From: Nitrosopumilus sp.
GTDB lineage: Archaea > Thermoproteota > Nitrososphaeria > Nitrososphaerales > Nitrosopumilaceae
NCBI GenBank assembly: GCA_965205425.1
Contig: CBDBGZ010000008.1
Span: 32,001 to 96,000 of the forward strand
Length of the DNA: 64,000 nucleotides
Reading direction: 5' to 3'
In this document: in pieces, positions 6,901 to 63,536 of the stretch
Layout of the letters: every line of letters begins with the position of its first letter
Numbering within the stretch: the first letter of the stretch is position 1
Made by a program: the position numbers and the translations under genes
The notes under the pieces: model-generated
Told to the model about the DNA's origin: nothing
Database searches by the model: none
Seen by the model: the letters and a program-made list of their open reading frames with translations, nothing else

Positions 6901-6937
6901 TTTTATATTGGAATAATTTTTGCGATGTGACAATAAC
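6901..6937 (+). promoter_or_regulatory. TATA-containing promoter/leader shared with the paralog at 62528
   Basis: TTTATATTGGAATAATTTTTGCGATGTGACAATAACATGAAAAAT is identical to the reverse complement around 62520-62564. Confidence 0.7.
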
Positions 6938-7819
6938 ATGAAAAATATTACAAACAAAACAAAGATAATCCTCTTTGCATCCTTGATAACTGCAATGATA
7001 CTTCCATTTAGTACAATGGATTTTGCAGAGGCCAAGAAAGGAGATTTCAAATTTGATAAAGATGATTTGAAAAACGATGTAAAGAAATGGATGAAAGACG
7101 ACAAAGACAAATCCAGAAGTGATAAAGTTGGTGAATTGAAGAACAAATATAATGAATTGCTTAGAGAATCAATTGAAGAAGTTAGACTCGATACTAACAC
7201 TCGTGTATTAACAGAAAATGAGATTAAACAATCAATACACTATATCGTTACTGAGGCAATTAAAGACGAGAAAGAAAAAGATAGAATTTCAAAGTCTGAA
7301 CAAGCTAACGATGAAACACTCTCAACTGATTATCTAGAAGCTTTAGGTATTCAATATGTTGATGCTACATGTCCTTCTACAACAAACCCAACATACAAAC
7401 AAGTATCAATTGACATAGATGGCGGCTCTTATGGAGGTAATACTTTTGGTGGAGACAATGATCTCTATCTAGTGTTATACTCTGATAATGCATCCACTTG
7501 TGAAAGAACCTATACACTCTATTGGTATGATGAAGACCATCCAACTCTTGATTCCTATTATGATGGATTAAGACAAGCTTGGTATGGTAGAACTCATGAT
7601 ATAGAGACATTCACCATCAAAAACAATTCAACTATTGAATTTGATGGAACATGGAGTAATGGCCATAATTTCAATGATACATGTTGGCTAATTGCGGGAT
7701 GCCATGATACTACAACTAAAACATGGTCTGGCGGAAATGTCTATGTTTCAAACACTTGGAATCATATGATGGACACATCAGATACCAATTCTTCACTAAC
7801 CAAGGTCACTGTACCTTAG
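6938..7819 (+). CDS. secreted pre-pro-protein with a Cys-containing C-terminal domain (family A effector candidate)
   Basis: Signal KTKIILFASLITAMILPFSTMDFAEA, charged helical pro-region, and a C-terminal domain highly similar to 61614-62528. Start moved to ATG 6938 using the shared promoter. Confidence 0.75.
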   Translation: MKNITNKTKIILFASLITAMILPFSTMDFAEAKKGDFKFDKDDLKNDVKKWMKDDKDKSRSDKVGELKNKYNELLRESIEEVRLDTNTRVLTENEIKQSIHYIVTEAIKDEKEKDRISKSEQANDETLSTDYLEALGIQYVDATCPSTTNPTYKQVSIDIDGGSYGGNTFGGDNDLYLVLYSDNASTCERTYTLYWYDEDHPTLDSYYDGLRQAWYGRTHDIETFTIKNNSTIEFDGTWSNGHNFNDTCWLIAGCHDTTTKTWSGGNVYVSNTWNHMMDTSDTNSSLTKVTVP

Positions 7820-7855
7820 TTATCTTTTTTTTATTAACGCATTAATGAGTTTATT

Positions 7856-8122
7856 ATGATTACTAAAAAGCAAATTATTACAAAATCGCTTGTTTTACTA
7901 GGTATTATATTTTCAATATTTACTCTAATACTACTCACCTCAAACAAAATCTACGCTTTAGGATTTGAGGTCCCTGATATGTTAATTGTAATTGGAATTG
8001 TTCTAGGAGTAATTGGCATTCCACTTTATGTTATAGATAAAAATCCTTTCAGATATGTTATTTTGAGCCCTCCTTTACTATTGTTTCTTTTGTTTCTTTT
8101 GAGAAGTGATCCTTTCAATTGA
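7856..8122 (+). CDS. small 3-TM membrane protein (partner/immunity candidate)
   Basis: 88 aa with three hydrophobic segments; follows a T-tract directly after the secreted gene. Confidence 0.65.
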   Translation: MITKKQIITKSLVLLGIIFSIFTLILLTSNKIYALGFEVPDMLIVIGIVLGVIGIPLYVIDKNPFRYVILSPPLLLFLLFLLRSDPFN

Positions 8123-8295
8123 TACAATAGATTATTGACATGATTTTTTTTAGAGAATGTTCTCTAGATGAAAATATTTCATGTTGGAGAAGTTGTAAAA
8201 TAATCAATTGTACTGCTGCACCTCACATTCGTTTGGATGTCCATTGGAGCAGTAAATAATAATTTTTGAGATGGAAAATAATGAAGTGTTTCTCA

Positions 8296-8865
8296 TCATT
8301 GTGATTCTCTCCTGACGATTATTTTCTCATTGGAATCATTTCTAGTAATTTTGTACGGTGCTACTGATGATGTGAGTGTGTTTAGATGACGTCTTACTGC
8401 AGGTTCTGAACCATGTCCTATCTTTTGCTTACAGAGATACACTATACTGTATAGTGCATCATTGAACATTACATGTCCATCAGTACTAGTTTCATTTTTC
8501 AGATAGGATTCCACCAAATCATATGTTCCAATGTTAATTCCTATTTCACTGGTGTAATCGTGGTGTGTTGTGTTTGGTTTTTTCACTCGCACAGAAAATT
8601 CTTCTTCATTTAGTTTTAGCTTCTCTGATGCCATTATCTGATAGTCAGTGTTTTTGATCTTTTTGATATTGCATGACTGGTGACAAATTACTATATTTTC
8701 CACGTTGTTATGTGTACGATTGTTATCAAGATGATCAAATGAGAAATGTTTGCCGCTTAGTTGCTGCTTACAGTAGAAACATCGAAAACCACCATCACGA
8801 GCTATAATTATTGGGAGATACTTTTCCTTTTTTGCAGGAGTTAATGAATCCATTATGTATAGCAC
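8296..8865 (-). CDS. HNH endonuclease domain protein with a probable C-terminal winged helix
   Basis: RDGGFRCFYC...DHLDNNRTHNNVENIVICHQSCN. Confidence 0.8.
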   Translation of the reverse strand: MLYIMDSLTPAKKEKYLPIIIARDGGFRCFYCKQQLSGKHFSFDHLDNNRTHNNVENIVICHQSCNIKKIKNTDYQIMASEKLKLNEEEFSVRVKKPNTTHHDYTSEIGINIGTYDLVESYLKNETSTDGHVMFNDALYSIVYLCKQKIGHGSEPAVRRHLNTLTSSVAPYKITRNDSNEKIIVRRESQ

Positions 8866-10611: not shown

Positions 10612-10690
10612 TAAGCATTGTATGCAATTAACCTGTACAACATCTCATTGTCCTGAGTTGTAACATTTCTTGATGTGACATCTCCGGACG

Positions 10691-10822: not shown

Positions 10823-11248
10823 GTGACGGCAGCTTGTGTGTTCTTGACTGAATCAATAGGCAAAGGTGATACCCAATCCGTCCTAAAAAAATTCCAAACA
10901 GCAGCTTGTGTGTTCTTGACTGAATCAATAAGCAAAGGCCAGGCTGCAAAGTCATTAGGGATTTCATCTCAGACCTTGAAAAAATACCTTGGATTTGCAG
11001 CAGTTCCAGAGAAACTAAAACAATTTGTTCCAAAAGAGTTGTCTCGTGATGATTGTACTAGATTATATCAAATTGTATCAAATGTACCAAAGGCCGTATC
11101 CATTGCAGAGAAAATTATTCCGTTAGATCAGAAACTACGAAAGGAATACCTCAAGGCTTTAAGTAGATCTCCAAAGTCATCACATCTAAAATTATTAAAA
11201 AGAGCCAGAGCAGGATTACTCCAACAAAGAGTCACAATTGAATTAACT
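10823..11248 (+). pseudogene. internal fragment of a ParB-like gene (paralog of 49942-50748)
   Basis: Near-identical peptide SLGISSQTLKKYLGFAAVPEKLKQF... It lacks the N-terminus, is cut by the IS end at 11249, and has an internal 30-bp duplication. Confidence 0.85.
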
Positions 11249-13447
11249 GAGACTTGGGCATAATGATTTACAAAAATAATTTCCAATATTTCTCTAGCAG
11301 CACAACATTCTCTTTACAGTTCTTGGATTCTCTGCACCAATTGCACAGTTGTAGTAAACTGTCAACTGATACACAAGAACACAAACCAACACAAATGATT
11401 TGACATTGTGCAATCCCTTTACAGGCAATACTCTGATGTCAAAAATATCTTTGAGATACTCAAATAGAGGTTCAATTGAGACTTTTCTATCTGCATACAG
11501 CTCTTGCCCAATTACAGAATTGTAAAACTCTACGAGTTTTATTCTCTCTGGCGGCGTATGCGGGTATTGTTTTATTGGAGTAATTAGTCTCAGATTTTTC
11601 TTGTTGCTAAATTGATGCAGTGAACCGTTGTCATATGCAGGATCACATAAGATATTCTCGACAAATCCTGCAAGAGATTCAGTTAGTATTTCATACATCT
11701 TGCCGTCATGAACATTTGCAGTTGAGACATCAGCAGACAATGGAACTATCAGTTTTCCAGTACTGCAACTCATATGCAGTTTGTACCCAAATATCCAACC
11801 CTTTGATTTTGAAAAACCCCATTTTGCATCTGTGTCAATTCCTGAGATTGGAATTCTATTCTTTTTCATATCTGACTTGTGCCATACTGGACCTACAGCT
11901 TTTAGCATGGAACTATCCACTGATGCAGATATGTCATCGACTAGTTTCTCTGATACAAACAGACTTTCCATATTACTGATTATATCACCAATTGGCAGAA
12001 CTTGGAATCTCCTGTCAATGGTTCTTCTGTTTGGGATTTGAGTTAGTCTGCAAACCTTGAGCAATTTATCATTGATACCTTTAGTCGAAAGGAAATAATG
12101 TAATGTATTGTTGCTTGGAATTCTCATCCAAGATTTTATGATGGACAGCTGTACCATTAGAATTGTAGAGTATACGTACGGTCTACCAAGTTTTCAGTAT
12201 CTCTTCATACAAAGACAACATTCCCACCAAATGTAACATACCAATAAGAAGTGATTCCGATAGAATCTTGTATCTTTTCCGGAAATTATTTCACCCCTTA
12301 ACTAGGAGAGCATCATTCCCATACTATCGTATGCGTGGGTATCGTGGCATACCTATGGTAAAGTTAGATGAGAATAAGATCAGGTGGATTATACAATCTA
12401 AAAATGAAAAAGTCAAGAATTTAGATATTTCAGTAATCCTCAAGATAACGCCTAGAAGAGTACAACAAGTCTACTCTCAGTACAAAAAAACCAAAAAGAT
12501 TCCCACACTCAAAAGACCAGGGCGTCCAAAAAAGCCAGTCACTGTACACGAGATAGAGCTAGTCAAACAAGTTCAAGAAAAATTTCATACAAACGCACTA
12601 TACCTTGAGAAAATCATATCAAAATTGTACAATACCAAGATAAACCACAATCGCATCCACAAGATTATGCTAGATGAAGGATTATCAGTTGAGCAACCAC
12701 GGAAAAAGATGAGAAGAAAGTGGATCAGGTATGAACGTGAATATTCAAATTCACTGTGGCATACTGACTGGCACACAATACATGATTCACGCTGGGCAGG
12801 AAAACAACTAATTGCATTTGAAGATGATGCCTCACGATTTATCACGGGTTTCGGAGTGTATGATGAGGCAACATCTGTGAATTCTTCTGAAGTACTATCT
12901 GATGCAATAAAGAATCACGGTAGACCAGCATCTGTACTATCTGATAATGGAAAACAGTTCACATCAAATGTCAATACTCTTGATCATAACAAGCCAGTAG
13001 ACTTTGAGCAGCAACTAATGAGACATCACGTAAAGCACTCTCGTACAAGAGTGAGACATCCACAAACAAATGGTAAGCTAGAAAAGTTCTGGGATATCTT
13101 TGAGTGTAAAATAGAATACTTTGAGTCAGTGGAGCAGTTTATGCATTGGTACAATCACATTAGAGTTCATGGCGCACTAGACTTGGATAACATGGAGACA
13201 CCATCTGATGCGTATCACTCCAAGATGATAACAAACGAAATACTCATAGACCCAAGCATTCTATGGAGGAATTACTCATGAAAGTGACACGAAATAATTT
13301 CTGGAAAGAACATCCGATAGAATCTTGTTAGGGATTTTCATTTGTTTTGACATTACAATGAACAAAACATGATAAGATCCTTAGCTTTTTCTATTTGAAT
13401 AATTTGAGAATTGACTCAAAAATTAGAATTAGTTATGCCCATGTCTC
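11249..13447 (-). mobile_element. IS982/IS5-like DDE element, disrupted by an IS481 insertion and a frameshift
   Basis: TIRs GAGAC(T/A)TGGGCATAA. Motifs VDSS / FGYKLH / CDPAYD / IEPLF. The true start is probably ATG 13341 (MKIPNKILSES), interrupted by IS481, with a +1 shift near 12190. Confidence 0.8.
12271..13312 (+). mobile_element. IS481-family element, 1042 bp, 15-bp target duplication
   Basis: rve motifs WHTDW, DDASR, SDNGKQF, PQTNGKLE. TSD TCCGATAGAATCTTG at 12256-12270 and 13313-13327. Confidence 0.92.
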
Positions 13448-13450
13448 AAT

Positions 13451-13572
13451 TATTTACAAAAATAATAATTAAAAATTTCAGTTATTTTTTTCAATATGAA
13501 AAACACCTAATTTAACAGTAAAAGTCTCTAATTTAACAGGCAGTTGAAAAGATCCTGAGATTCAACAGTGTA
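13451..13572 (-). mobile_element. solo IS/MITE end (terminus TACACTGTT(G/C)AATCTC)
   Basis: Homologous to 33289-33356, 51985-52104 and 59311-59370. Confidence 0.65.
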
Positions 13573-18340: not shown

Positions 18341-18402
18341 GTGAATAATAAAATAAAGACTGTAATGTTTGCGGTTTTGATATTTTCAATGATTGTTATC
18401 GC
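18341..18402 (+). pseudogene. signal-peptide stub of a secreted gene related to 38690, cut by ISH3
   Basis: (M)NNKIKTVMFAVLIFSMIVIA versus MNDKTKAAMFSLLIFSIIVTV, with a similar upstream TAAATAGA..AATTTGT. Confidence 0.55.
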
Positions 18403-19721
18403 CAGTAGATGGGAAAGTAACTCAAATTACACATTCTAGGAAATAATTATTTTTGTTATTTCTAAAGTAATGAATAATTATCTTTACAAAGAAATATTTG
18501 AGAATTTCAATTGATATTATTGGTTTGTGATTTTGTACATTAGTTTCTTCTGAGATAATCAAATTAGCAATTATCCATGCATTGTACAAAATCAATGAAT
18601 AGTAAAAATACAACAATCTTATGGATTGGTTTGAACTGGTGGTTTTTGGTCTGAACCTTCCCACACATGCATATCCTGTTTCAATTCCCCAACGTTTCTT
18701 GTAATCAGTTGGAATGTTTTGTATGTTATATGATATTTCTTTTGGTGAAACGTTTGTTGCAAACACAACATACTGATCAATAATATTTGATTTTTTTCTT
18801 GCATTTTTGTTTGGTAGAATAACTAGATTAAATGATTCTACATGTCCTGATGATGATTTTATTGTGTATGGCGAGATTGACTTTCTATCTCCATTAACGT
18901 ATTGTAAAATGGCATCTTTGATTCGAGAATTCTTTTTTGCAGGCATTAGAAATTTCAGATTCTTTTGTTTTATTTCTGAAATTGTTCCAGCTGTGAAAAA
19001 CTCCCTATCCACTAGCAATAGTTTAATCTTGATTCCATTATTGATGCCATCAGAGAGTAATTTACGCACAAAACCGGCATTTGATATGTTGTCATACAAA
19101 GGATAACAACCTAGTTGAGCCCTGATTCTTTTTTCAACGCACTGCATGGTGCAGTAACTCTCAAAATGAGTAGTACTGTTTTTTGATTTTGATTTTATTA
19201 AAGAATGGTTTGGCAATTTGTCATATCTTGGGATTAGATGTTTGTCAATTGCCACAGTAACTGGTTGCTCCAATACTCCCAATTCTTGTAATTTTGATAC
19301 TGTACTATCCAGTGAACGATGTAATTGAATTTGCATTGTTTTTTGTGATATTTTTGATATGATTTTTCTCAACCATGAACCAGTTGGAGAATGATTCTGG
19401 GATTCCATTGCCAGTCTCTTTAATCCAGATTCAGAATATGAATTTCCCAAACACAATGACATGATAGAATTATGTGCGTCTGCATTGTGGAACCGTGAGT
19501 TATTTTTACTAGAGCATGGAAACAACAAGATATTGTACATTATTTTAGTGATAATCTCAAATGCTTTAGATAGTATCACGCCTTGGTGTGTCATGGTATC
19601 AAATGAAGTACAATGCATATTTGATGGAGTGACATACTTTCATCAAGCTTTTTCTATCTGAATAGATTGATTGAATAATTGATAGTTTTTGATCTAAATT
19701 GAGTTACTTTCCCATCTACTG
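18403..19721 (-). mobile_element. ISH3-like (IS4 superfamily) element, intact ORF 18422-19618
   Basis: TIR CAGTAGATGGGAAAGTAACT; motifs VAIDKH, LVDREF, YKKRWGIETGY. No TSD (flanks differ). Confidence 0.9.
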
Positions 19722-19991
19722 AATGTACCAAAGGCCGTATCCATTGCAGAGAAAATTATTCCGCTAGATCAGAAACTGCGAAAGGAATACCTCAAGGCTT
19801 TAAGTAGATCTCCAAAGTCATCACATCTAAAATTATTAAAAAGAGTCAGAGCAGGATTACTCCAACAAAAAGTTACAATACAGTTGAATAAAGGAAATGC
19901 TAGAAAGTTACGAGGTTTGGCAATGAGAAAAGATGTAGAAGTTACTGAGATGGCAGATATTATACTGTCAAGTTATTTGAAGAGAAAGTGA
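19722..19991 (+). pseudogene. 3' fragment of a ParB-like gene
   Basis: Encodes ...VPKAVSIAEKIIPLDQK...DIILSSYLKRK*, matching the C-terminus of 49942-50748. Confidence 0.85.
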
Positions 19992-32648: not shown

Positions 32649-33197
32649 ATGAACAAAATTATCGTATTATCTTTTTCCCTCTTTTTTTTAATATTTACAA
32701 CTAGTGAAGCATATCCAGATAATCTATCATTAAAAAGCCAAATCAAGATGGACTTAAGTATTGATGAAATAGCATGTAAAAATAATTTGGTATTATCTCA
32801 AAGATCAAATAATAATCTTGCATGTGTCTATGAATCAACTGCTGAAAAGTTACAATGGGATATTTTAGAATATAGAATTTTTGAATTAAAGTCTATTGAT
32901 AGTGATGAGGTTTATCCTATATCATATAGATTATCTGGTGGATTAATAAACAAAATTACATTAACTGATGAATCACATATAATTGAGATAGATTTTGATT
33001 CTTGGAGTGATGGTCAACTTGATATATCATTACCCTTGGCGTTTATCTCAGATGAGTTTGATTCTCTAATTATTTTGATTAATGATGATGTTGAAATTGA
33101 TTTTGAAACTATTATTAATTTAGATAATCAAACTTTGATTATGGAGTTTTATGAAGGAGATTATAATATTAAAATAATTAAGACCTATTTGATATAA
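32649..33197 (+). CDS. secreted acidic partner protein
   Basis: Signal peptide and C...LVL...ACV..STAEKL motif; starts 1 bp after the protease stop. Confidence 0.7.
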   Translation: MNKIIVLSFSLFFLIFTTSEAYPDNLSLKSQIKMDLSIDEIACKNNLVLSQRSNNNLACVYESTAEKLQWDILEYRIFELKSIDSDEVYPISYRLSGGLINKITLTDESHIIEIDFDSWSDGQLDISLPLAFISDEFDSLIILINDDVEIDFETIINLDNQTLIMEFYEGDYNIKIIKTYLI

Positions 33198-41201: not shown

Positions 41202-41945
41202 ATGAGAAAATTATTTCTTTTTTTCTTTTTTTCAATAATTATAATGCCAATCACGAGTGTTGATGCATATCGTGGAATCCCTAACAACTGTGTTATCATG
41301 ATAAAAGCTTCAGATGATTCCTTGGTATGTATATCTGAGAGATCAACTGATAAAATAATACAAAGAAATTATGCATATTTTGGTGAATGGAAATCTAGTT
41401 GTGATGATAATGCAGAAATTAATGCTAAAATTTGTTACCTTTTACTACCAGAAACTGGTGGTGTATGTATAGCAAATGATTTGTTTCGGGGATGTATTAT
41501 AACATTTGATATCCCAACAAATCATAGAGATTGTAAAATGCTATTCAAGCTAATTGTTGATTATAATATGACTGATCGTACTTTAGAAAAAGAACATTTA
41601 TTTTACAATTATTTTCCTTTCTCGCATAAATTTTGTAATGTAGTTGATGAAATTAAAAAACCATACAATACACATCATGTCTCTGTAAATGATGATGGTG
41701 CAAAGTATTTGTTCATACATGATATAAGATTTATAATGTTAGATGGGTTACCAAACAAAGTATCTATTTATTATTCTTCCACTGTTAATGATCGTGCTAT
41801 TTGGTATGATTTTATTTTTTATTCAGATGATATGAGATATGAGGGTAGGATGGAACATGAATTTTTTGGAATAGGGGAAATTTTTATACTAAATAAATGT
41901 TTTGCGTCACATGAAAAACTTACAAAATGCCCTATCCATTCCTGA
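41202..41945 (+). CDS. secreted Cys-rich partner protein
   Basis: Signal peptide; N-terminal C.......LVCISERSTDKII resembles 32649; directly downstream of the protease. Confidence 0.65.
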   Translation: MRKLFLFFFFSIIIMPITSVDAYRGIPNNCVIMIKASDDSLVCISERSTDKIIQRNYAYFGEWKSSCDDNAEINAKICYLLLPETGGVCIANDLFRGCIITFDIPTNHRDCKMLFKLIVDYNMTDRTLEKEHLFYNYFPFSHKFCNVVDEIKKPYNTHHVSVNDDGAKYLFIHDIRFIMLDGLPNKVSIYYSSTVNDRAIWYDFIFYSDDMRYEGRMEHEFFGIGEIFILNKCFASHEKLTKCPIHS

Positions 41946-49941: not shown

Positions 49942-50748
49942 CTATCTTCTCTTCAAATAACTTGATAATATGACATCTGCCATCTTTGAAACTTCTACAT
50001 CTTTCTTCATAGCCAAACTATGTAACTTCCTGGCATTTCCTTTGGTTAATTGTATTGTAACCTTTTGTTGCAACAACCCTGCCTTTGCCTTTTTTAGTAA
50101 TTTTAGATGTGACGATTTTGGAGATCTACTTAAAGCCTTGAGGTATTCCTTTCGTAGTTTCTGATCTAGCGGAATAATTTTCTCTGCAATGGATACAGCC
50201 TTTGGAACATTTGATACAATTTGATATAATCTAGTACAATCATCTCTAGATAACTCCTTTGGAACAAATTGTTTCAATTTCTCAGGAACTGCTGCAAATC
50301 CCAGATATTTTTTCAAGGTCTGAGATGAAATCCCTAATGACTTTGCAGATTTACTTTTGCCTATAGATTCACTCAAGAACACACAAGCTGCTGTCATATC
50401 TTTTGTGTTCATTTTATTTCTATGTAGATTCTCTACAACTGATGCTGCTTTTGCATCCTCTAAATCATATTTGGTACTATTTGTTAACAGTAATACGGGT
50501 ATCTTTTTTGCACCTAGTCTTTTCAGTGCTACAAGCCTTCTCTGGCCCGACATTAACAGATAAGAATTCTTTCCATCTTTTTGGACCATTGGAGGATTTT
50601 GTAATCCGTCATTTTTTATCGATTTTGCTAGCTCTGCTATTCCCTCGCGGTCTAGTTTTCTTGCTTGGGCATCACGCCACACCTTGATATGTTTTACAGG
50701 AATTTCACGTAAACGATAGGATATTGGTGAATAGTAACGTTTTGCCAC
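49942..50748 (-). CDS. ParB/Srx N-terminal domain protein with HTH and an RHH-like tail
   Basis: LAKSIKNDGLQNPP...SGQRRLVA...ENLHR. Confidence 0.85.
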   Translation of the reverse strand: MAKRYYSPISYRLREIPVKHIKVWRDAQARKLDREGIAELAKSIKNDGLQNPPMVQKDGKNSYLLMSGQRRLVALKRLGAKKIPVLLLTNSTKYDLEDAKAASVVENLHRNKMNTKDMTAACVFLSESIGKSKSAKSLGISSQTLKKYLGFAAVPEKLKQFVPKELSRDDCTRLYQIVSNVPKAVSIAEKIIPLDQKLRKEYLKALSRSPKSSHLKLLKKAKAGLLQQKVTIQLTKGNARKLHSLAMKKDVEVSKMADVILSSYLKRR

Positions 50749-50849
50749 TGATACCTTGGAATGTTTTATTTTGTTAAAAAGAGAAGGTGATATTTTATTG
50801 ACAAAGAAGAAAATTCTAGAACCATATTTTCTATGTATATTGTTACATT

Positions 50850-51767
50850 CTAAAACAAATCAACATTTTCTCTCAGACTCTTGCATCTATTTCTCACGGT
50901 AACCTCAGTAACACCTGATGCATCTGAGATGTTTCTCTGGGTGACGTTTTCACCTGTTTTGATGCATGCCAGGTATAGTGCAGCAGCTGTTATTCCCATT
51001 GGGTCTTTTCCTGTTGACTCGTTTGTCTCTTGGGCATTTTTTAGCATGGCAATTGCAATTCTCTTTGTCTTTTCTGTGAGATTTATCTTGCTTGCAATCC
51101 TTGATATGCATAATACTGGATCAACTACAGGCATTTTGAGTTCCAGTTCTCTATGTAGTATTCTATAACATCTTGCAATGTCCTTTCTTTTCAGATTTGA
51201 TTGTGTCGCTATATCATTTAACGTTCTAGGGGTTTCAGTATCTCGGCATGCAGCGTATAATGATGCTGCAATTAGTGCTGAAATGGAACGTCCACGGACC
51301 AGTTTCTTCTCAAGTGCCTTTCTGTAAATGTATGCGGCCTTTTCATTAACTGATGGTGACAATGATAGTTTGTCTTTAAGATTGTCAAGCTCCATTAATG
51401 CCTGTCTCAAATTACGGTCTGCAGAATCCTTTGCCTTGCTTCTGTTATCCCATGTGCGTAATCGCTCAAAGGTGCTTTTCATGGTACCAGATAGTGGGTT
51501 TCCTGATGCGTCTTTATTTGCAGCACCAATATTTGTTGCAAGTCCCCTGTCATGCATGGTCAGTGATGTCGGGGCACCGGTTCTTGCCGAATTGACTCCA
51601 TTATCATTGTTAAATGAGCGCCATTCAGGACCTGTTTCCTGTATCATTTCAGGTATGACGTATCCGCACTTTCCACAGAATCTCTCTCCGGTATTATCAT
51701 CAGTTAGAATGGAATTTTTTCCACAGCGTTTGCAGGTATCTGTAGAATTTATTTTTGATGGCACCAT
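50850..51767 (-). CDS. tfb: transcription initiation factor IIB paralog
   Basis: Zn ribbon, GPEWRSF, RTGAP, cyclin repeats. Confidence 0.95.
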   Translation of the reverse strand: MVPSKINSTDTCKRCGKNSILTDDNTGERFCGKCGYVIPEMIQETGPEWRSFNNDNGVNSARTGAPTSLTMHDRGLATNIGAANKDASGNPLSGTMKSTFERLRTWDNRSKAKDSADRNLRQALMELDNLKDKLSLSPSVNEKAAYIYRKALEKKLVRGRSISALIAASLYAACRDTETPRTLNDIATQSNLKRKDIARCYRILHRELELKMPVVDPVLCISRIASKINLTEKTKRIAIAMLKNAQETNESTGKDPMGITAAALYLACIKTGENVTQRNISDASGVTEVTVRNRCKSLRENVDLF

Positions 51768-54269: not shown

Positions 54270-56271
54270 TTTGATGGCGAGCTTTATGGATATGATCAAA
54301 ATATACATATCAGACAACCAGCTACTATACAATACAGTTTTTTGTTCAGTCCAGATCATTATGAAATGAACGAAGATGATCTTGTTGATAGAGATAGTCT
54401 TAATGATATAATCTCAATTCCCTCTAAAGGCGCAAGTGGTACTAGTGGTGATACCATTGAGGATACCATTGATTATAGAGAATGGCTCCCAACATGGGTT
54501 GCACCAGGATACTATCTAAAATGGGTAGACATTAGGCAACCCAAGGATCAATATTCTCTTGGTCATGAAGGTGAGGGAAGAATACAATTTACCTTTATTC
54601 CAAAGGGTACGGACCTACCTGATGGTATAACCCACAAGGAATTCACAGATACCAGTTATTATCTAGTCACAGCGAAGATATATGAGGATACGCCAAAGCC
54701 GGAGTATATGTATACAGCCAGTGAGAAAGCTGAAGTAACTGACAACGGCACAACCACTGATCTTATTTTTGAAGACAGGTGGGATGGATACATAGAGCAT
54801 TCACATGCAAACAGATCTGATCCTGCAAAACATAGTGTAAAGTATATTACTCCTTATCTCATTATTGCTTCTGGTGGAACTGCATTAACCATCAGTAGAT
54901 GGGAAAGTACATCAAATTACACATTCTAGAAAATAATTATTTTTGTTATTTCTAAAGTAATGAATAATTATCTTTACAAAGAAATATTTGAGAATTTCAA
55001 TTGATATTATTGGTTTGTGATTTTGTACATTAGTTTCTTCTGAGATAATCAAATTAGCAATTATCCATGCATTGTACAAAATCAATGAATAGTAAAAATA
55101 CAACAATCTTATGGATTGGTTTGAACTGGTGGTTTTTGGTCTGAACCTTCCCACACATGCATATCCTGTTTCAATTCCCCAACGTTTCTTGTAATCAGTT
55201 GGAATGTTTTGTATGTTATATGATATTTCTTTTGGTGAAACGTTTGTTGCAAACACAACATACTGATCAATAATATTTGATTTTTTTCTTGCATTTTTGT
55301 TTGGTAGAATAACTAGATTAAATGATTCTACATGTCCTGATGATGATTTTATTGTGTATGGCGAGATTGACTTTCTATCTCCATTAACGTATTGTAAAAT
55401 GGCATCTTTGATTCGAGAATTCTTTTTTGCAGGCATTAGAAATTTTAAATTCTTTTGTTTTATTTCTGAAATTGTTCCAGCTGTGAAAAACTCCCTATCC
55501 ACTAGCAATAGTTTAATCTTGATTCCATTATTGATGCCATCAGAGAGTAATTTACGCACAAAACCGGCATTTGATATGTTGTCATACAAAGGATAACAAC
55601 CTAGTTGAGCCCTGATTCTTTTTTCAACGCACTGCATGGTGCAGTAACTCTCAAAATGAGTAGTACTGTTTTTTGATTTTGATTTTATTAAAGAATGGTT
55701 TGGCAATTTGTCATATCTTGGGATTAGATGTTTGTCAATTGCCACAGTAACTGGTTGCTCCAATACTCCCAATTCTTGTAATTTTGATACTGTACTATCC
55801 AGTGAACGATGTAATTGAATTTGCATTGTTTTTTGTGATATTTTTGATATGATTTTTCTCAACCATGAACCAGTTGGAGAATGATTCTGGGATTCCATTG
55901 CCAGTCTCTTTAATCCAGATTCAGAATATGAATTTCCCAAACACAATGACATGATAGAATTATGTGCGTCTGCATTGTGGAACCGTGAGTTATTTTTACT
56001 AGAGCATGGAAACAACAAGATATTGTACATTATTTTAGTGATAATCTCAAATGCTTTAGATAGTATCACGCCTTGGTGTGTCATGGTATCAAATGAAGTA
56101 CAATGCATATTTGATGGAGTGACATACTTTCATCAAGCTTTTTCTATCTGAATAGATTGATTGAATAATTGATAGTTTTTGATCTAAATTGAGTTACTTT
56201 CCCATCTACTGACCATGCAAGAACATGAAAATATTGTTATAGAGTTATTTGAAAGATATGACAGCAGATGA
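54270..56271 (+). pseudogene. acidic hypothetical gene, 5' end lost and interrupted by ISH3 near its 3' end
   Basis: Removing the IS and one ACCAT restores ...GGTALT-MQEHENIVIELFERYDSR*, whose TGA overlaps the ATG of 56268. Confidence 0.7.
54893..56211 (-). mobile_element. ISH3-like element, intact, 5-bp TSD ACCAT
   Basis: Protein identical to the 18403 copy; ACCAT at 54888-54892 and 56212-56216. Confidence 0.93.
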
Positions 56272-58919
56272 AAGTAATTGTTTTACTAGTTGTTGTATTT
56301 CTCGGAATACTTGTTGCTGAAGCAGAAGCTGTGTGCAGTGATGGAAATTGTAGAGCAGTACAGCGTCATGCTACTCTTAATGCAGACTATACTGGTTCAC
56401 AATATGATATCAAAATACCTGATCTCTTCATTGATGATACAAACTGTGAAAACAAGGGCGCTCTTGCTGCCACCTGGATGATTATAGAGCCTACTGAAGA
56501 TGGAACTCCACAATGGATGGAAACTGGTGTAACTGTTGGTTGGATTTTAAACAATGACCATGGCAGAAGTGATGCTGAATGTATAACTAGAGAATCTGCA
56601 TACTATGCTTTTGCCTCTAAGAATAATGCCGGGGAGAGAATATACGTAGAACAAAATGCAGACCCACACGGTGATAGGATAGGTATAGAAAAACATTTCA
56701 GAATAGAGAAATTAAATAATCATTTTATTGCTTATTATGGAGATTCAAATACACAGGTTTCGACAAGAGATTTTAATTTTAGGGATTCAAACACGGGAAT
56801 CTCTGTCGACTATGGAGTTGAAGGTAGTATCTCGCCAATACTTGAATACTCTACAATCCCCAATGTGATATTCACTGGTGCGCAGTATGAAACTGAGAAT
56901 GTCTGGCACGACATAAGCTCATCTACTGTAACCTCAATTAATGATGAAAGCGACGGATACAAGTCCCAGTTTTGCTCTAATGGTTCTCTGGCAGCAGGAG
57001 CTGTAACTGAACTGTCTTGCAGATCAGAAATTATTCCAAACACTCCGCCACGTCATACTGCTACAAATCTATTTACATCTACTGGAACTCCTATACTAAT
57101 CCCGCTCACTGCAACTGACACAGATAATGATTATCTAAAATATACTCTAACTGGTCATCCCACAAATAGTGACGGTGCTGGCACATTGAATTTTGTAAGT
57201 CGCGGACAACCAATCCCAAATACTGATGAAACAAGTACAGAGCTTCTCTTTACACCTGTAAGGGTAGGAAGCAGTTCTTTTAATTATACAGTTACTGATG
57301 GAAGAACAGGCCATGATGTTACAAATATCATAACAGTTGACATAACAAGCCTTGATGATATATCCACACCTGATATTTTTTATGAAGCATTTGAAAGTGG
57401 TCTTGGTAATTGGATAGTGGCAAATGATGATGATGGTGACACTCACGATTATGATTTTTGGAGGACAGATACTGACGGTGAGCCCACACCAATTGATGGA
57501 GATTATGCATACATCCAGGATTGCGATACAGGCTGTACCATAACAATGAGAAATTCAGTTAATATCTCAGATACATCATCACCAAAACTAGAAGCTGATA
57601 TCTGGATTGATGGAATTAGAGACCGTGATGAAGACTTTTACAATCTGGAGATATTTTATAACAATAATTGGATAACCCTTGATTCTTACACCCGGGATAA
57701 TATTTCAAGAGGTGTATGGCATGACTATTCCAAAGATTTGTCACCTTACAAAAGTAATGATTTTAAATTTAGATTAAATGTTCAAGGTGAAGGAAATACT
57801 GATTATCACGGTATAGATAATATCAGAATATATGATTTTGTACAGACATCACCTGCAATAGTTACTGACTTGTTATCAACACCTACCGTATCATCAAATA
57901 CATTGACTTGGAGCACTCCAAATGACGGCAATTCAGACATTACAGGCTATAGAATCCAAAGAGCAGTCGACACCCCAACTAGATTTACCATTCTAGAGAG
58001 TAGCTACGGCTCTGCATCAACTGTATCATATGTTGATACTAGTGTGACTTCGGGTTCTACATACTATTATAAAATCAGTGCAAGAAATGATCAAGGAATA
58101 GCTACTGAAAGTCAATTTGCATCTGCAACTATTCCCCATCCTCCAACTGCTCCTGTAATATCTTCAATATCTGATATCACACTATCGGAGACAGATACTG
58201 CAATAGTTACAGTTACTGTATCTGATATCAACAGAGATGTTAGCAGCATTACATTTACCGGACTTGCAAGCTTTGTTACAATAGAGAGTACAACTCAAAA
58301 CACATCCACATTATTGATATCTCCAAACCTTGAGAGCTCCGGAGTTTATGACATAGTTGCAACTGCAACTGATTCTGGAGGCAGATCAGATACAGAACAA
58401 TTTAGATTGACCATTACTGATTATGTTATGCCTGTTGTATTGCCTCCCGTATTCACAAGCATGCAAAATGACATTACAGAAATAATTGATTCGGGAAATT
58501 CCACAATAGTATCATTTGATACACCAACTGCAGACAAGGGGACAGTTATCTGCAATCCATCTTCTGGCAGCTTGTTTGGTATTGGTACAACTGTAGTTAC
58601 ATGTACGGCCACATCTAACAGTACATCATCTTCCATCAGCTTTAATGTAATGGTACAGTCATCATCAGATGTTGAAGATCCAGTCCTTGTCATACCAACT
58701 GATAAAATATTTGAAGCCATTGCAAGATCAACTATTCTGACTGATTTACAGATTGGAACATCTACTGCAACTGACAATCGAGATTCATCGCCAATCATTA
58801 CAAATGATTCACCAGCATCATTCCCACTTGGCATTACAACTATAACTTGGACTGCAACTGATGCTGCAGGTAACACTGCAACTGACACTCAAATAATTAC
58901 TATCAGGAACTCGTCCTAA
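56268..58919 (+). CDS. secreted multidomain protein (N-terminal beta domain, Ig/cadherin-like, jelly-roll, FN3, HYR x2), possibly 3'-truncated
   Basis: Signal peptide, TATDTDND, WSTPNDGNSDITGYRI (FN3), FPLGITTITWTATDAAGN (HYR). An IS end follows immediately. Confidence 0.8.
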   Translation: MKVIVLLVVVFLGILVAEAEAVCSDGNCRAVQRHATLNADYTGSQYDIKIPDLFIDDTNCENKGALAATWMIIEPTEDGTPQWMETGVTVGWILNNDHGRSDAECITRESAYYAFASKNNAGERIYVEQNADPHGDRIGIEKHFRIEKLNNHFIAYYGDSNTQVSTRDFNFRDSNTGISVDYGVEGSISPILEYSTIPNVIFTGAQYETENVWHDISSSTVTSINDESDGYKSQFCSNGSLAAGAVTELSCRSEIIPNTPPRHTATNLFTSTGTPILIPLTATDTDNDYLKYTLTGHPTNSDGAGTLNFVSRGQPIPNTDETSTELLFTPVRVGSSSFNYTVTDGRTGHDVTNIITVDITSLDDISTPDIFYEAFESGLGNWIVANDDDGDTHDYDFWRTDTDGEPTPIDGDYAYIQDCDTGCTITMRNSVNISDTSSPKLEADIWIDGIRDRDEDFYNLEIFYNNNWITLDSYTRDNISRGVWHDYSKDLSPYKSNDFKFRLNVQGEGNTDYHGIDNIRIYDFVQTSPAIVTDLLSTPTVSSNTLTWSTPNDGNSDITGYRIQRAVDTPTRFTILESSYGSASTVSYVDTSVTSGSTYYYKISARNDQGIATESQFASATIPHPPTAPVISSISDITLSETDTAIVTVTVSDINRDVSSITFTGLASFVTIESTTQNTSTLLISPNLESSGVYDIVATATDSGGRSDTEQFRLTITDYVMPVVLPPVFTSMQNDITEIIDSGNSTIVSFDTPTADKGTVICNPSSGSLFGIGTTVVTCTATSNSTSSSISFNVMVQSSSDVEDPVLVIPTDKIFEAIARSTILTDLQIGTSTATDNRDSSPIITNDSPASFPLGITTITWTATDAAGNTATDTQIITIRNSS

Positions 58920-59310: not shown

Positions 59311-59370
59311 CTTTACAGCAAGTCTCTAATTTAACACCATGTTGAAAAGATCCTGAGATTCAACAGTGTA
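59311..59370 (-). mobile_element. solo IS/MITE end (TACACTGTT family)
   Basis: AAGTCTCTAATTTAACA...GTTGAAAAGATCCTGAGATTCAACAGTGTA. Confidence 0.65.
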
Positions 59371-59377
59371 GGTGAAT

Positions 59378-60076
59378 CTATTGCCCGGTCTCAGATAATA
59401 ACATGTCTCTTGTTTCAATCATTTTTAAAGTCATTTCTTCGTTACCCTTACTTATTGATTCATTTACTGCATCCAAGTATAGTTTAGCAGGGTTGTCATA
59501 ATGCACTTTATCTATGTATGATTGAATATATTGTGTTCCATCTAATTCAGCTGTAATATCATACCGTGATGAAAATCCATTTATAATGTATTTGTCGTCA
59601 TGATCTGAATTTTTTTCGATCAAGTAAAAATGCTTATCACCAATATTGTAGGTTTGAACATCCTCACGATAAAACATTGTTTTTACACCATCACTTTCAC
59701 CAATCTTACCACTTGCCCAATCATACACAATTAATTTTTCACTAAAATTTCCTGTGGTATCTTTAAAATAATGATCAACGACCAACATGATTTTTTGATA
59801 TGGTCGTTTTTCCGTATGTGCGATATACTCATTACCATTCTCATCTATATCTATACCAGTATTTGATTCAAGTAATTCTATACCTACATCTTCAACTGTA
59901 GCTACTGCTATGATCTCCACACCGGAGATTTTCCAATCAAAAGACATATTCGAATTATACTGTGAAACACCATATGAAGTATTTACATATGAATTTTCAT
60001 TTATGTATATTGCAGATGATGTACTAATTACCATCACACCAATTAAGATAGATAATAGAGTTTTTTTATTCGTCAT
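59378..60076 (-). CDS. N-terminally anchored/secreted partner protein
   Basis: N-terminal hydrophobic helix; 4-bp ATGA overlap with the upstream metalloprotease. Confidence 0.7.
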   Translation of the reverse strand: MTNKKTLLSILIGVMVISTSSAIYINENSYVNTSYGVSQYNSNMSFDWKISGVEIIAVATVEDVGIELLESNTGIDIDENGNEYIAHTEKRPYQKIMLVVDHYFKDTTGNFSEKLIVYDWASGKIGESDGVKTMFYREDVQTYNIGDKHFYLIEKNSDHDDKYIINGFSSRYDITAELDGTQYIQSYIDKVHYDNPAKLYLDAVNESISKGNEEMTLKMIETRDMLLSETGQ

Positions 60077-60798
60077 GGATATTTAGAACCTATTTTATTT
60101 TTGTCTGCTGTTGATAAATCGTATCCAAAGTTGGATCCGCATTGATATCCGTTGAATCTTAGATCTGTTGAAACACTATTATGATCAATACCAATCACAT
60201 GTAGTAATTCGTGTCCTAGGGTCTTTTCAATGTCTCTTTGTGTAGGTTGATTGTCTATATTGCATATTTCTGTTATATCCCAATTCATGGAATTATGTGA
60301 ATTTACATTTAATATCATTTTCTTAAAATGATTATCTTTTGTTATACAATGCCATAAAAATTGATTGATGCAATGGAGTTCATAATCTGTAAATCCAATA
60401 TTCCCAAGACTCCCGTAATTTGTTGATGTAATATAGTTATCAGATGCTGCTACTTTATCAAAACTAATTTTTTTGTTAATGTTGTCAAATCGTGTTTCTA
60501 TTGTGCTTATTTCTGATGATACATTTGCTTTTGTAACACCTGAGTTAGAAATATTATTTAGAATTTTGATTTCTACGGCACACTTATCACTGTTCGTTCC
60601 TGTCCCACAATTAAGATAATCTGTATGTCCATCTGTTAAAGTTCTAGACCACGTATGTCGTTCGAATTCTAAAAATTGATTAGAACCTTCATGTTTTGCA
60701 TATGCAGTATCTGCTGATGAAATAATGACGAGTGTAACACCCAATGTCATCAATATCAGTGAAAAGATACTGTTTTTTTCCAGCATTTTAGGAATCAT
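60073..60798 (-). CDS. secreted zinc metalloprotease (metzincin/matrixin-like)
   Basis: Signal ending AYA; HELLHVIGIDH (HExxHxxGxxH); LSTADK...KYP tail. Confidence 0.75.
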   Translation of the reverse strand: MIPKMLEKNSIFSLILMTLGVTLVIISSADTAYAKHEGSNQFLEFERHTWSRTLTDGHTDYLNCGTGTNSDKCAVEIKILNNISNSGVTKANVSSEISTIETRFDNINKKISFDKVAASDNYITSTNYGSLGNIGFTDYELHCINQFLWHCITKDNHFKKMILNVNSHNSMNWDITEICNIDNQPTQRDIEKTLGHELLHVIGIDHNSVSTDLRFNGYQCGSNFGYDLSTADKNKIGSKYP

Positions 60799-60900
60799 TA
60801 TTTCAAGAATGAATTTAAATGTTAGGTGATTGTAAACCTATTACCACCAACTATTTTTGAGTAATTATTGGAAAAAACAATCAACATAATTGAGTTATCT

Positions 60901-61053
60901 GAGACTTGGGCATAATTAATTCTAATTTTTGAGTCAATTCTCAAATTATTCAAATCAAAAAAGCTAAGGATCTTATCATGTTTTGTTCATTGGAATGTCA
61001 AAACAAATGAAAATCCCTGGCAACATAAGATGCCAGTCATTCCTTATTGGTGT
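60901..61053 (+). mobile_element. 5' end fragment of the IS982/IS5-like element
   Basis: Matches the reverse complement of 13330-13447, including the transposase start MKIP. Confidence 0.8.
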
Positions 61054-61288
61054 TTTGTATCTGTACTGTCTAACAAATATTCATGACCCAAAATCTTCCA
61101 AATTATGCTAATTCCTGAAATTTAAACTTGAATCTACAATGTACGTAAATCGAGTTCAGAATAGGGTGACGAATTTTTGTTATTGAGTATAACTGACCAT
61201 TCCATCACCAGAATTGACAATTAGTTGGAAATCTGCCTAGTTCTGACCAAAGTAAATTTCTTTATCTGTGCAATAATATATTCTACTT

Positions 61289-61600
61289 TTATTCTAATTT
61301 TTTTCTGCGATTCTCTAAAAATCTATTAATATAATGTGCAATTGGAATCCAGAATACAAGATTAGTGATTGGTATCAAAACATAAGCAAGTTCATCATAA
61401 TATTGAAAATTAAAATCTCTATGGGTTTTGCTATGCTCCAATACCATTTCATATGGAAAAATAGCAAGGGTGTTTGGGATTATATTAAGATAAAATGTAT
61501 ACTGATTCTGTAAATCAAGAACAGCTGGAATGATGACTGAGAAAATTCCAAAAAGCGGTAAACTAACAAACAGTATAATTTTTAATTTTTTCATAATCAA
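61289..61600 (-). CDS. small membrane protein (partner/immunity candidate)
   Basis: Two to three hydrophobic segments; starts right after the T-tract following 61614. Confidence 0.65.
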   Translation of the reverse strand: MIMKKLKIILFVSLPLFGIFSVIIPAVLDLQNQYTFYLNIIPNTLAIFPYEMVLEHSKTHRDFNFQYYDELAYVLIPITNLVFWIPIAHYINRFLENRRKKLE

Positions 61601-61613
61601 AAAAGAAAAAAGA

Positions 61614-62528
61614 TTAAGGTACTGAGATCTTGGATAGGGATCTGTTTGTGTCAGATGTATCCATCATATGGTTCCAAGTGTTGCTGACATAGATTGTTTG
61701 ACCTGGAACATACGACTTTGTTATTGTGGAATGACATCCACGTTGTAGCCCATCCAGACAATCATAACTATTTAAAGAACTCCACGTATCACCAAATATT
61801 ATTTGGTTGTTGTTCTTAATTACAAATGACTCGATATCAAATGTTCTGTTGAACATGAAGAATCGTACACTATCGTAAAATGAATCCAAATAAGGATGAT
61901 CCTCATCTAGAAAAGACAAAGTATACGTTCTTTCACAGGTTCCAGGACTGTCTTGGTATAATACAAGATACAAGTCATTATCGCCATTGTATGCATTGCC
62001 GTTGTGTATGCCGCCATCAATGTCTAGACGTAGTTGTTTGTATGTTGGATTTGTAGTACTTGAACATGCGGCACTTGCACTAGGAATACCAAACCAATCT
62101 AGAAAACTAACATCTATCCTATCTGCATAATCTGACTCTTGTAATGCTTTTAGTTTCTCGTCTTTTATTGTTTCATCAAAGATATAATTTTTTACAGCTG
62201 CAATCTCTACATCAGTCAGGTTTCTAGTTTCTGAATCCACACGGGCTTGTTCAATTACAGTACTAAAGAACTCGTCATATTCTGCCTTGATTTCATTAGA
62301 TTTTACTTGAAAATCTTTTGTATCTGCATCATCTATTAATTCTCGAATATCATCTTTGAACTCTTGTTTTGTTAGTTCATCAACAACTCCAACTGGTCCT
62401 ACCTCATCTGTAGAATCCTCACCTGGTCCATTCTGAGCATCTGCAAAATCAATCATACTAAACGGTAGAATCATTGCAGTAATTATTCCTGCAAACAAAA
62501 TTGTCTGTACTTTTTTATCATTTTTCAT
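61614..62528 (-). CDS. secreted pre-pro-protein (family A effector candidate)
   Basis: Signal TILFAGIITAMILPFSMIDFADA, VGPVGVV motif, C-terminal domain shared with 6938. Confidence 0.75.
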   Translation of the reverse strand: MKNDKKVQTILFAGIITAMILPFSMIDFADAQNGPGEDSTDEVGPVGVVDELTKQEFKDDIRELIDDADTKDFQVKSNEIKAEYDEFFSTVIEQARVDSETRNLTDVEIAAVKNYIFDETIKDEKLKALQESDYADRIDVSFLDWFGIPSASAACSSTTNPTYKQLRLDIDGGIHNGNAYNGDNDLYLVLYQDSPGTCERTYTLSFLDEDHPYLDSFYDSVRFFMFNRTFDIESFVIKNNNQIIFGDTWSSLNSYDCLDGLQRGCHSTITKSYVPGQTIYVSNTWNHMMDTSDTNRSLSKISVP

Positions 62529-62762
62529 GTTATTGTCACATCGCAAAAATTATTCCAATATAAAGATAACTTAGACATGGGCATAATCAATTACAAAAAA
62601 CAAAACCAAAAAATAATTATTATCAAATTGATTTTGTTTTAATCAACATAATCTAATGTATATTCAATATGACTTTACAATTCCATGATATTATTCCATC
62701 ATAGAAAGTGGGATAAAGTAATATGGATTATATGTTAGGATTTTACCGTATTAAATAATAAC

Positions 62763-63536
62763 ATGAAAAATTTAACAAAAAAGACACAAACAATTTTGTT
62801 TGCAGGAATAATTACTGCAATGATTCCTGCCCTTTAGTACGATGAATGTCGTAGATGCTCAGAATGGACCAGGTGAGGATTCTACAGATGAGATTGGACC
62901 AGTAGGAGTTGTTGATGAATTAACAGTACTAGATTCTGTATTAGATGACTATTTAGAGGAATTAGAAGTTGAACAAGATGTAGAATATACAGAATATTTG
63001 GATACTGCAATTACTAGATTAGAAATTGCAAAAGCAATGATGCAGGTTTCAAAAAATTCTACTGATATTGCAATGAAATATCAAAACCACACTGTTCTAG
63101 AACTGCTTGTCCTTCTTGATCAAACATATGGACCTGAGGATTATCCTGCAACTAACAGTGATAACAATTCAACACATACAAACATAGACATGCTAACTGA
63201 AAATAATCATGTATCTGGACTTTATTTTGTTAGTCATAGTACGCCAGAAGTTGATGTGTTGAATTACAACAACCATCACCAAAAACAATATGATTGTATG
63301 GACAGAATAACCCTTACAGGTAAATCTTTATCTGTCTTAACATCATACTCAGACAACACTGCAACGATTACTGGTACATTTGATTATCCAGAAGATATGG
63401 ATAAAAATATCAGAGAACGAAGAAGTAATGAATGCTTGAGTTTTGAACACGATGAAACAGTAAAACGACATGATGTTATGATATCCCTTGATCCTAGAGA
63501 AATAATACGAGCTCAAGTGTGTACTTTGACGGAATC
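62763..63536 (+). pseudogene. secreted pre-pro-protein with a +1 frameshift in the signal peptide and 3' truncation by ISH3
   Basis: MKNLTKKTQTILFAGIITAMI, then an extra C near 62826; continues as ORF 62842 with QNGPGEDSTDEIGPVGVVDELT. Confidence 0.75.

Follow-up and report, generated by a model that had tools for sequence, protein, structure and literature searches.

Among the polymorphic toxin systems of bacteria, MafB/MafI of Neisseria appears to be the closest in layout to the genes described here. As far as the excerpted description of that system goes (PMC4436062), both join a signal peptide and a conserved N-terminal part to a variable C-terminus, both place a small gene directly downstream, and both have orphan modules and a homologous stretch permitting 3′ exchange. 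We analysed a window of 64,000 nucleotides from Nitrosopumilus sp. (GenBank assembly GCA_965205425.1, contig CBDBGZ010000008.1, positions 32,001 to 96,000; C8:32001-96000 of genome G000 in our numbering), which belongs to a genome of 2.2 Mb with 33% GC. The window contains six cassettes, each formed by the gene of a putatively exported precursor and an adjacent partner gene; the typical precursor consists of a leader, a pro-region and a C-terminal domain, which we call the tip. The cassettes are real and reach far beyond the window. They probably constitute a polymorphic effector/immunity-type system that is specific to Nitrosopumilaceae and acts at the cell envelope, with tips that are presumed to be toxic. 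The cassettes differ from MafB/MafI in that they are archaeal and their precursors are short, without repeats or a named trafficking domain. Their tips are not named nuclease or deaminase toxins, their partners are membrane or exported proteins, and the system is known here from its genes. The cassettes are scattered, each with its own leader, rather than arranged in long orphan arrays.

Operons of a secreted protease and its cognate inhibitor are exemplified by AprA/AprI and staphopain/staphostatin. As in these operons, some of the cassettes place the gene of an exported protease directly before that of an exported non-enzyme whose family follows the protease. They differ in that the enzymes are of the S1 and matrixin-like types, the partners belong to no named inhibitor family, and the leader is also found on non-protease tips. 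S08A proteases with serpin neighbours are mentioned in the excerpted account of sponge-associated ammonia-oxidising archaea (PMC6790972). Halocin C8 (ProC8/HalI; bioRxiv 10.64898/2026.07.27.741052) is, like the presumed products of the cassettes, an archaeal secreted precursor, of about 280 residues, that releases a small C-terminal domain. According to the part of the report available, halocin C8 is exported by the Tat pathway and immunity is provided by the N-terminal part of the precursor, whereas the leader of the cassettes is of the Sec type, the partner is encoded separately downstream and the tips are of many kinds. The leader alignment contains no twin-arginine motif, and no halocin family of Pfam was matched.

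Few marine microbes are more abundant than ammonia-oxidising archaea, which also commonly live as symbionts of animals. Archaeal polymorphic toxins were reportedly surveyed in mBio in 2019 by Makarova et al., whose survey may list some members of the system. That survey and supplementary tables aside, the cassettes are not described in the accessible portions of the literature searched, which included PMC6393860, PMC7848895, PMC6790972, PMC12352652 and bioRxiv 10.64898/2026.07.27.741052; within these portions, the papers on sponge-associated ammonia-oxidising archaea mention transposases, S08A proteases and serpins. The same literature contained no report of a secreted antagonism system of ammonia-oxidising archaea.

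Cassettes of the window

The six pairs 6938/7856, 31496/32649, 33462/34418, 38690/41202, 60073/59378 and 61614/61289, named by the first coordinates of their genes in the window, lie where the original prediction had placed them, and their coordinates were re-checked. The partners had been claimed to start within 37 bp, and the stop-to-start gaps of the pairs, in the same order, are 36, 1, 17, 37, −4 and 19 nucleotides. The insertion sequence (IS) families mentioned in the list are ISH3 and IS481. The cassettes and the orphan or broken members are as follows.

6938–7819, + strand: family A precursor of 293 residues with leader, pro-region and Lsa23-like mature domain (about 7367–7816), the latter with the motifs DEDHP (7529–7543), GRTHDIE (7586–7606) and NTWNH (7751–7765) and a Cys-closed variable loop (7682–7702)
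7856–8122, + strand: partner of 88 residues with three hydrophobic segments, from the second family A partner family; 51% identity over 84 residues to the partner at locus L057
13588–14505, − strand: family B precursor of 305 residues with the second leader subtype and no partner open reading frame (ORF); a multicopy repeat and IS481 follow
18341–18402, + strand: start of a 38690-like precursor (21 codons), cut by ISH3 at 18402; 96.8% identical to C9:243621-243744
31496–32647, + strand: leader, pro-region and S1 (chymotrypsin-type) protease with intact His/Asp/Ser motifs
32649–33197, + strand: exported partner of 182 residues with a WING-49 domain, which is common in envelope-type proteins of the genus
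33462–34400, + strand: family B precursor of 312 residues; the mature part (about 33981–34397) is modelled as an all-beta sandwich with a predicted local distance difference test score (pLDDT) of 87
34418–34648, + strand: two-helix membrane partner of 76 residues, with homologues behind the family B genes of L027 and L028
38690–41164, + strand: secreted protein of 824 residues with a divergent leader and GPVG box, MAM-like/fn3/HYR repeats and a C-terminal S1 protease
41202–41945, + strand: exported partner of 247 residues; it shares 25% identity with its counterpart beside the related protease C8:5668
59378–60076, − strand: exported partner of the Zn protease, 232 residues, of a family preceded by an HExxH protease at 7 of 15 loci
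60073–60798, − strand: secreted matrixin-like Zn protease of 241 residues (HELLHVIGIDH) without the stereotyped leader, which its relatives at L149 and L151 have
61289–61594, − strand: membrane partner of 101 residues from the main family A partner family, LPxYG ... NLxFWxPIA with a variable middle
61614–62528, − strand: family A precursor of 304 residues with GPVG box (62382–62399) and junction motif IPSASA (62070–62087)
62529–62762, no strand: intergenic region between divergent precursors; its copies at C9:879955-880323 and C9:883930-884227 separate other tip types
62763–63536, + strand: broken precursor, frameshifted near 62825–62832 and truncated at its 3′ end by ISH3 (63537)

The stereotyped leader predicted for five genes was recovered in 6938, 31496, 33462, 61614 and 62763. 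Gene 13588 represents a second subtype, 38690 is divergent (E 0.35 with the leader profile), and 60073 is not matched. The pro-regions had been described as acidic; this holds for four of the five measured, and that of 6938 is near neutral (28 Asp/Glu against 23 Lys/Arg). The protease assignments agree with the motifs present: the S1 triad motifs (His, Asp and GDSG) occur in order in 31496 and 38690, where profile and Protein Data Bank (PDB) matches were weak, and 60073 contains the metzincin zinc motif, HExxHxxGxxH. The two family A partners, 7856 and 61289, indeed cannot be aligned (E 7.5) because family A has two partner families, each with homologues beside family A genes elsewhere. The members listed as orphan or broken are so: 13588 has no partner, 18341 is limited to its start by ISH3, and 62763 is both frameshifted and cut by ISH3. 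The frameshift of 62763 is also present in its paralogue C9:884184, and the C9 paralogue retains the tip and a two-helix partner of 90 residues.

Distribution of the leader family

The leader profile was iterated and searched against the 18,146 stop-to-stop ORFs of the same genome (E < 0.001). It matched 30 genes, and two weaker members were added by eye to give 32. Two of the 32 genes lie in blocks of 10.6 and 11.6 kb that are duplicated at 99.97–99.99% identity (C8:5322-15898 and C8:204784-215360; C8:11040-22677 and C9:1-11639); these may be recent duplications or assembly redundancy. The census across Nitrosopumilaceae, suggested with the original prediction, revealed a patchy and expanded family with diverse tips and downstream genes. 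Within the genus, 47 of 151 genomes have between 1 and 24 matches; 42 of 191 other genomes of the family were matched as well, but none of 109 genomes from other families of the class.

A set of precursors was assembled from the same genome and the fetched loci (the matches listed and 80 regions), which are a part of all matches; the 144 complete leader ORFs gave 114 distinct precursors. The last 130 residues of these fall into 37 clusters, 16 of which have at least two members; several of the 21 singletons are cut-short genes or membrane-anchor ends. The 30 tips of the studied genome belong to 12 clusters, so that one N-terminal region is joined to distinct C-terminal domains. The reverse also occurs: family A tips are found with unrelated leaders and pro-regions and inside large multidomain proteins, and S1 tips occur behind both leader subtypes. 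A GPVG box follows the leader in 21 of the 114 precursors, from 8 clusters. The leader offers a one-step handle on at least 16 recurring (37 in total) unnamed, putatively extracellular domains with matched partners, and each pair of tip and partner is a candidate toxin/antidote or ligand/receptor pair.

Partner genes follow the type of tip

Partners were identified by rule as ORFs of at most 260 codons with a hydrophobic start, beginning between −12 and +40 nucleotides from the upstream stop. Among 1,367 simply called genes of at least 180 codons in the studied genome, a partner followed 20 of 30 leader genes. The corresponding figures were 23 of 986 for ordinary genes, 12 of 130 for other genes of secreted appearance and 4 of 221 for repeat genes. 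When the partner was limited to 125 residues, the respective counts were 11, 12, 3 and 2. T-rich terminators can be read as hydrophobic codons, and the enrichment was therefore conditioned on the presence of a T-tract; given a T-tract, a partner lies behind 17 of 24 leader genes and behind 8 of 287 others. This control, together with conservation across genomes, rules out that the partners are spurious ORFs in T-rich DNA. In the 61289 family, the LPxYG and NLxFWxPIA ends are kept across 16 sequences, including one from a GC-rich genome, around a variable middle.

A partner by rule accompanies 64 of the 114 precursors, and the predicted link of downstream gene to effector type was found across genomes: the family of the partner follows the family of the tip. 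Of 42 similarities between partners, 37 link precursors of one tip cluster (mean 3.7 and maximum 14 in 2,000 permutations), a test that overstates the linkage because related genomes are not independent. The expected division into membrane partners of non-proteases and exported partners of proteases is reflected in partner size in the 114-precursor set. Fourteen of 15 protease tips have a partner longer than 140 residues with one hydrophobic start; the partner is at most 140 residues long in 43 of 50 non-protease tips and has two or more membrane segments in 31. The 61289-type partner family is widespread, and the 7856 type recurs beside a close family A variant at L057 and, weakly, at L063.

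The partner family of the Zn protease (59378) was found at 15 loci, behind an HExxH protease at 7, behind a fragment at 1 and behind nothing at 7. A search for homologues of 59378 in a large protein set returned only 59378 itself. The idea that it is a TIMP-like protein gained no support from PDB and Pfam searches. The protease partners 32649–33197 and 41202–41945 contain a WING-49 domain, which was matched up to 33 times per genome in 35 of 41 genomes of the genus and in none of 14 control genomes; it is possibly an envelope-retention tag. Complex predictions for the mature domain of 61614 and its partner 61289 gave discordant scores of 0.50, 0.01 and 0.02 over three runs.

Exchange of modules between paralogues

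The original prediction described a polymorphic organisation of effectors with cognate partners, and besides the linkage, 3′ exchange, orphan modules and lone partners agree with it. Four family A paralogues of the studied genome have synonymous differences of 0.007–0.17 in the pro-region and 0.0 over the first 19 mature codons, and of 0.21–0.70 in the remaining tip and 0.54–0.75 in the partner. In three of the four, the DNA reconverges at the 3′ end of the partner. In 61614, the exchange point lies just past LDIDGG (62010–62027), and the variable Cys loop is at 61734–61760. The last 140 residues of 61614 are 91% identical to those of C9:880262 and differ mostly in the Cys-closed loop, and the partners of the two are 34% identical; L059 has the same loop as C9:880262 and the closest partner. 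C4:310506, a protease cassette, is mosaic: its 5′ part corresponds to C4:177060 and its 3′ part to C4:193302. Judging from these patterns, tip and partner modules have been exchanged by recombination between paralogues. Positive selection was not supported, since nonsynonymous differences (pN) were below synonymous differences (pS) in all regions except a near-identical pair of pro-regions. Apparent joints across partner and tip in contigs of four sequencing runs were explained by paralogues of the same genome.

Orphan modules were found in few examples, and long arrays were not seen. At L196 and L217, a tip fragment of 57 codons and a second partner lie behind a complete cassette. The partner profile of the 61289 family matched 21 of 151 genomes. 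Thirty partner loci were fetched, of which 17 have a whole or broken family A gene upstream. The 13 loci without family A include one at a contig edge, one with another tip type, one with a decayed precursor and two that overlap. In 10 genomes with such partners that were searched, the family A profile had no match in six (four of them 99% complete), found remnants in three and a distant form in one. At L002:882-1160 (− strand), a lone gene behind a family A cassette resembles, by eye, the two-helix partner of the C9:884251 tip and would represent another kind of orphan partner.

A second signal-peptidase-like motif

A hydrophobic-P/Q-x-A-x-A motif occurs in 25 of the 114 precursors, from 9 tip clusters, and is always 109–153 residues from the end. 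The same motif was found 0.6 times on average in shuffled sequences (maximum 3) and in 17 of 922 other ORFs. Where it is present, the mature part has a median length of 129 residues; the sequence upstream is charged and free of Cys, and that downstream is rich in Cys, Trp and Tyr. The motif resembles the end of a signal peptide and may mark a second cut, although a relic of a signal peptide that the tip formerly possessed would look identical. A second signal-peptidase-like motif at the junction of pro-region and mature part is new here.

Nature of the tips

Family A has 65 close homologues and extends to 280 protein clusters at E ≤ 0.001. It has no match in Pfam, including no match to PF05630 among 58 members and 40 further relatives. 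The mature domain matches the NCBIfam model Lsa23 (NF047489) at E 1e-9 to 1e-8, and 62 of 64 aligned relatives match the same model, with a best E of 1.3e-99. Since the tips score 35–38 bits and the curated equivalog cut-off is 270, family A is a distant relative of Lsa23 and not an equivalog. Lsa23 of Leptospira is reported, in the part of the source available, to bind factor H, C4BP and plasminogen (PMC5174078). Family A differs from it in being, presumably, a tip cut from a pro-protein, and in having a cognate membrane partner.

The model of family A (pLDDT 91) was compared with 48,161 chains, and NLP cytolysins took the first and second places (Z 4.3 and 4.0; root-mean-square deviation 4.1 and 3.6 Å), followed by a score of 3.8. 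Among 654 re-aligned chains, seven NLP entries were on top with Z 4.0–4.5, the next being 2.6. The superpositions cover 96–107 residues with deviations of 3.1–4.8 Å, which is below the level that proves kinship. Foldseek alone returned nothing significant for family A. An Atlas search gave as a lead a Vps62-bearing cluster (0.85, 20% of members). NLP (NPP1, PF05630) and Vps62 (PF06101) are used as fold comparators, from which family A differs by its smaller size (150 residues) and 6–12% identity. The invariant residues of family A are Asp, Glu, Arg, His and Asn. At the position of the GHRHDWE heptapeptide of NLPs, R-x-x-D-x-E is found in 53 of 58 members, with His at the fourth place in 18 and no Trp; the available excerpt of one study describes the heptapeptide as part of an acidic cation pocket (PMC13159263). 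On the strength of the model, the likeness to NLPs is a lead and not membership. The description of family A as an Lsa23-like domain with weak fold matches to NLP cytolysins is new here. NLPs are not known to have a cognate immunity gene.

A profile of the 64-member family A alignment had no match among PDB sequences at E 10, and the single match of a single-sequence search was judged to be due to chance. None of 61 pattern matches to family A in viral contigs was confirmed. Lsa23-like domains are fused to YhhN, to the N-terminal domain of purple acid phosphatase and to large surface proteins (P0176, P0166, P0091, P0129 and P0202), which hints at an activity related to lipids or the envelope. 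Secreted homologues of family A outside Nitrosopumilaceae are followed by an unrelated membrane gene in a Thermococcus record, and the same layout was found at 4 of 15 distinct metagenome loci (7 when longer membrane proteins are counted). The related archaea also contain a leaderless Lsa23-like class of 310–370 residues without a membrane partner (L009, L231, L233, L235, L236, L238 and L239). Family A joins Lsa23, Vps62 and NLP-like folds and suggests a possible role of the unannotated Lsa23-like domain.

Family B had 8 matches in the large protein set. Its fold has no specific match: Foldseek gave a top TM score of at most 0.36, and the wide search ended in ties among unrelated beta sandwiches (best Z 6.9). 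One of 30 representatives of other tip clusters is a matrixin. Tip cluster 2, with 12 members of which two are from the studied genome, has an EPNP motif followed by a Trp-rich, amphipathic-looking tail (L182:1154-1969 on the − strand, L100, L138 and L146). It matched no family, and an Atlas search gave only matches of 0.81 or less. Its sequence makes cluster 2 a prime candidate for a membrane-active domain.

Insertion sequences near the cassettes

Transposase-like sequence makes up 10.9% of the genome in 327 segments, and the window contains IS630, IS481, IS110, ISH3, IS66 and IS6 types. The proximity of IS elements to the cassettes was confirmed: 27 of 32 leader genes are within 1 kb of a transposase-like segment, compared to 18.5% of 3000 random intervals. 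Among 87 leader loci from separate records or regions, 25 have a transposase-like match, an undercount that is based on 13 queries. The further claim that IS elements spread the cassettes was not supported, because the elements touching cassettes interrupt them, the mosaic breakpoints are inside coding sequence, and the genome as a whole is rich in IS. None of the duplicated blocks checked is bracketed by matching IS elements; IS630 remnants end two blocks on C4. The block of IS481 and the start of gene 18341 recurs on C9, where the same IS481 lies upstream of C9:243621-243744. Most likely, IS elements collect in dispensable islands, rearrange and erode them, and homologous recombination swaps the modules. 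Short multicopy elements with 10–47 overlapping matches lie beside cassettes at 13313–13490, 33240–33357, 59330–59380 and 60820–61060 and may be solo IS ends or pieces resembling miniature inverted-repeat transposable elements.

Proposed mechanism and alternative explanations

Gene layout, linkage, exchange and orphan modules are read directly from the genes, and a mechanism of export, processing and protection can be proposed from them. The leader would direct the precursor through Sec, with the pro-region acting as a chaperone and mask of the tip. The tip would then be freed, either by another cleavage, at the internal hydrophobic-P-x-A-x-A site, or, in the proteases, by self-cleavage, as a Cys- and aromatic-rich beta domain of 110–150 residues or as an active protease. 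Because there is no translocation domain, the freed tip would act on neighbouring cells from the outside; these would most likely be related archaea that compete for the same crowded habitat. An acidic/His pocket may allow family A to bind a glycolipid or glycan of the membrane, in the manner of NLP-fold proteins. The partner, a small membrane protein or, for proteases, an exported one, would bind the cognate mature domain at the surface of the producer and neutralise it. Since no tip is a recognised toxin domain, toxicity stays a presumption. If the tips are toxic, the system would account for how strains exclude one another in crowded habitats, for example sponges, and would provide agents against archaeal envelopes.

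Several observations weigh against an effector/immunity-type system. Fifty of the 114 precursors have no partner by rule, and tip clusters 5 and 7 have none at all. Named toxin families were absent among the tips of the window and among the 30 representatives of other clusters. The literature describes Lsa23, the single named relative of family A, as an adhesin for host proteins. The NLP match is weak (Z 4.0–4.5); in the wide search an unrelated chain scored practically the same (3.8), and only part of the GHRHDWE hallmark is conserved. In the same archaea, there are also forms of the family A domain that have neither leader nor partner. Physical linkage alone could make a partner travel with the adjacent loop.

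An extended form of the proposal is possible but rather doubtful. It envisages lineage-specific envelope warfare with dozens of undescribed toxin domains, two successive signal-peptidase-type cuts in one standard precursor, an NLP-fold cytolysin directed at archaeal glycolipids, and membrane antidotes that recognise its Cys-closed loop in an allele-specific way and that non-producers gather too.

It is unlikely that the cassettes encode host-directed adhesins or effectors of symbionts, with tips that act on surfaces of the animal host and partners that serve as anchors, chaperones or release factors. The likeness of family A to Lsa23 and, weakly, to NLPs would fit such a role, as would the HYR/fn3-type adhesive repeats of 38690 and the presence of family A in Nitrosopumilus sp. 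Nsub, which is listed as a sponge symbiont in the part of PMC7848895 available. However, the Thermococcus record and other environmental contigs also contain secreted family A homologues followed by a membrane gene, and a host target leaves both the allele-specific partners and the partners without effectors unexplained.

Still less likely are non-toxic ligand/receptor or kin-recognition pairs, in which the tip would be a secreted signal or identity tag, the membrane protein its cognate sensor, and the polymorphism a set of strain-specific channels. Such pairs account for the cognate linkage, the variable loops and, through eavesdropping, the lone partners, and none of the tips is a recognised toxin. 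However, the partners of 65–120 residues have no cytoplasmic signalling domain, intact proteases ride on the same leader, and dozens of unrelated tip folds would be unusual for a signalling family.

The least likely explanation is a heterogeneous set. On this view the leader is an export signal that has been reused many times, the proteases serve nutrition and come with inhibitors for self-protection, and the remaining pairs are two-gene envelope operons, unrelated to one another, that have accumulated in dispensable, IS-rich regions. Some leader genes do end in membrane anchors or have no partner, 60073 lacks this leader, WING-49 in the protease partners is found across the genus, and secreted proteases beside serpins are reported for sponge-associated archaea in the excerpted PMC6790972, but the common leader, GPVG box, junction motif, intergenic region and T-tract/partner layout unite proteases with non-proteases, and C4:310506 is a mosaic of two protease cassettes.

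Other features of the window

Directly downstream of the 6938/7856 cassette, on the opposite strand, an ORF of 189 residues (8296–8865) has a weak HNH match. A secreted protein of 883 residues (56268–58919) consists of an unclassified N-terminal domain followed by Big_9/fn3/HYR repeats that resemble those of 38690; it has no leader match, and no partner ORF was seen. At positions 23–3751, a cluster of three genes on the + strand that resembles a defence cassette includes an SNF2-type helicase (773–2770) and a NOV_C-domain protein (2780–3751). The unclassified ORF at 54342–54929, a single copy in the genome, has its 3′ end cut by ISH3. A ParB-like gene adjoins a second TFB paralogue at 49942–51767, and two IS-flanked fragments of this ParB-like gene are located at 10823–11263 and about 19720–19990.

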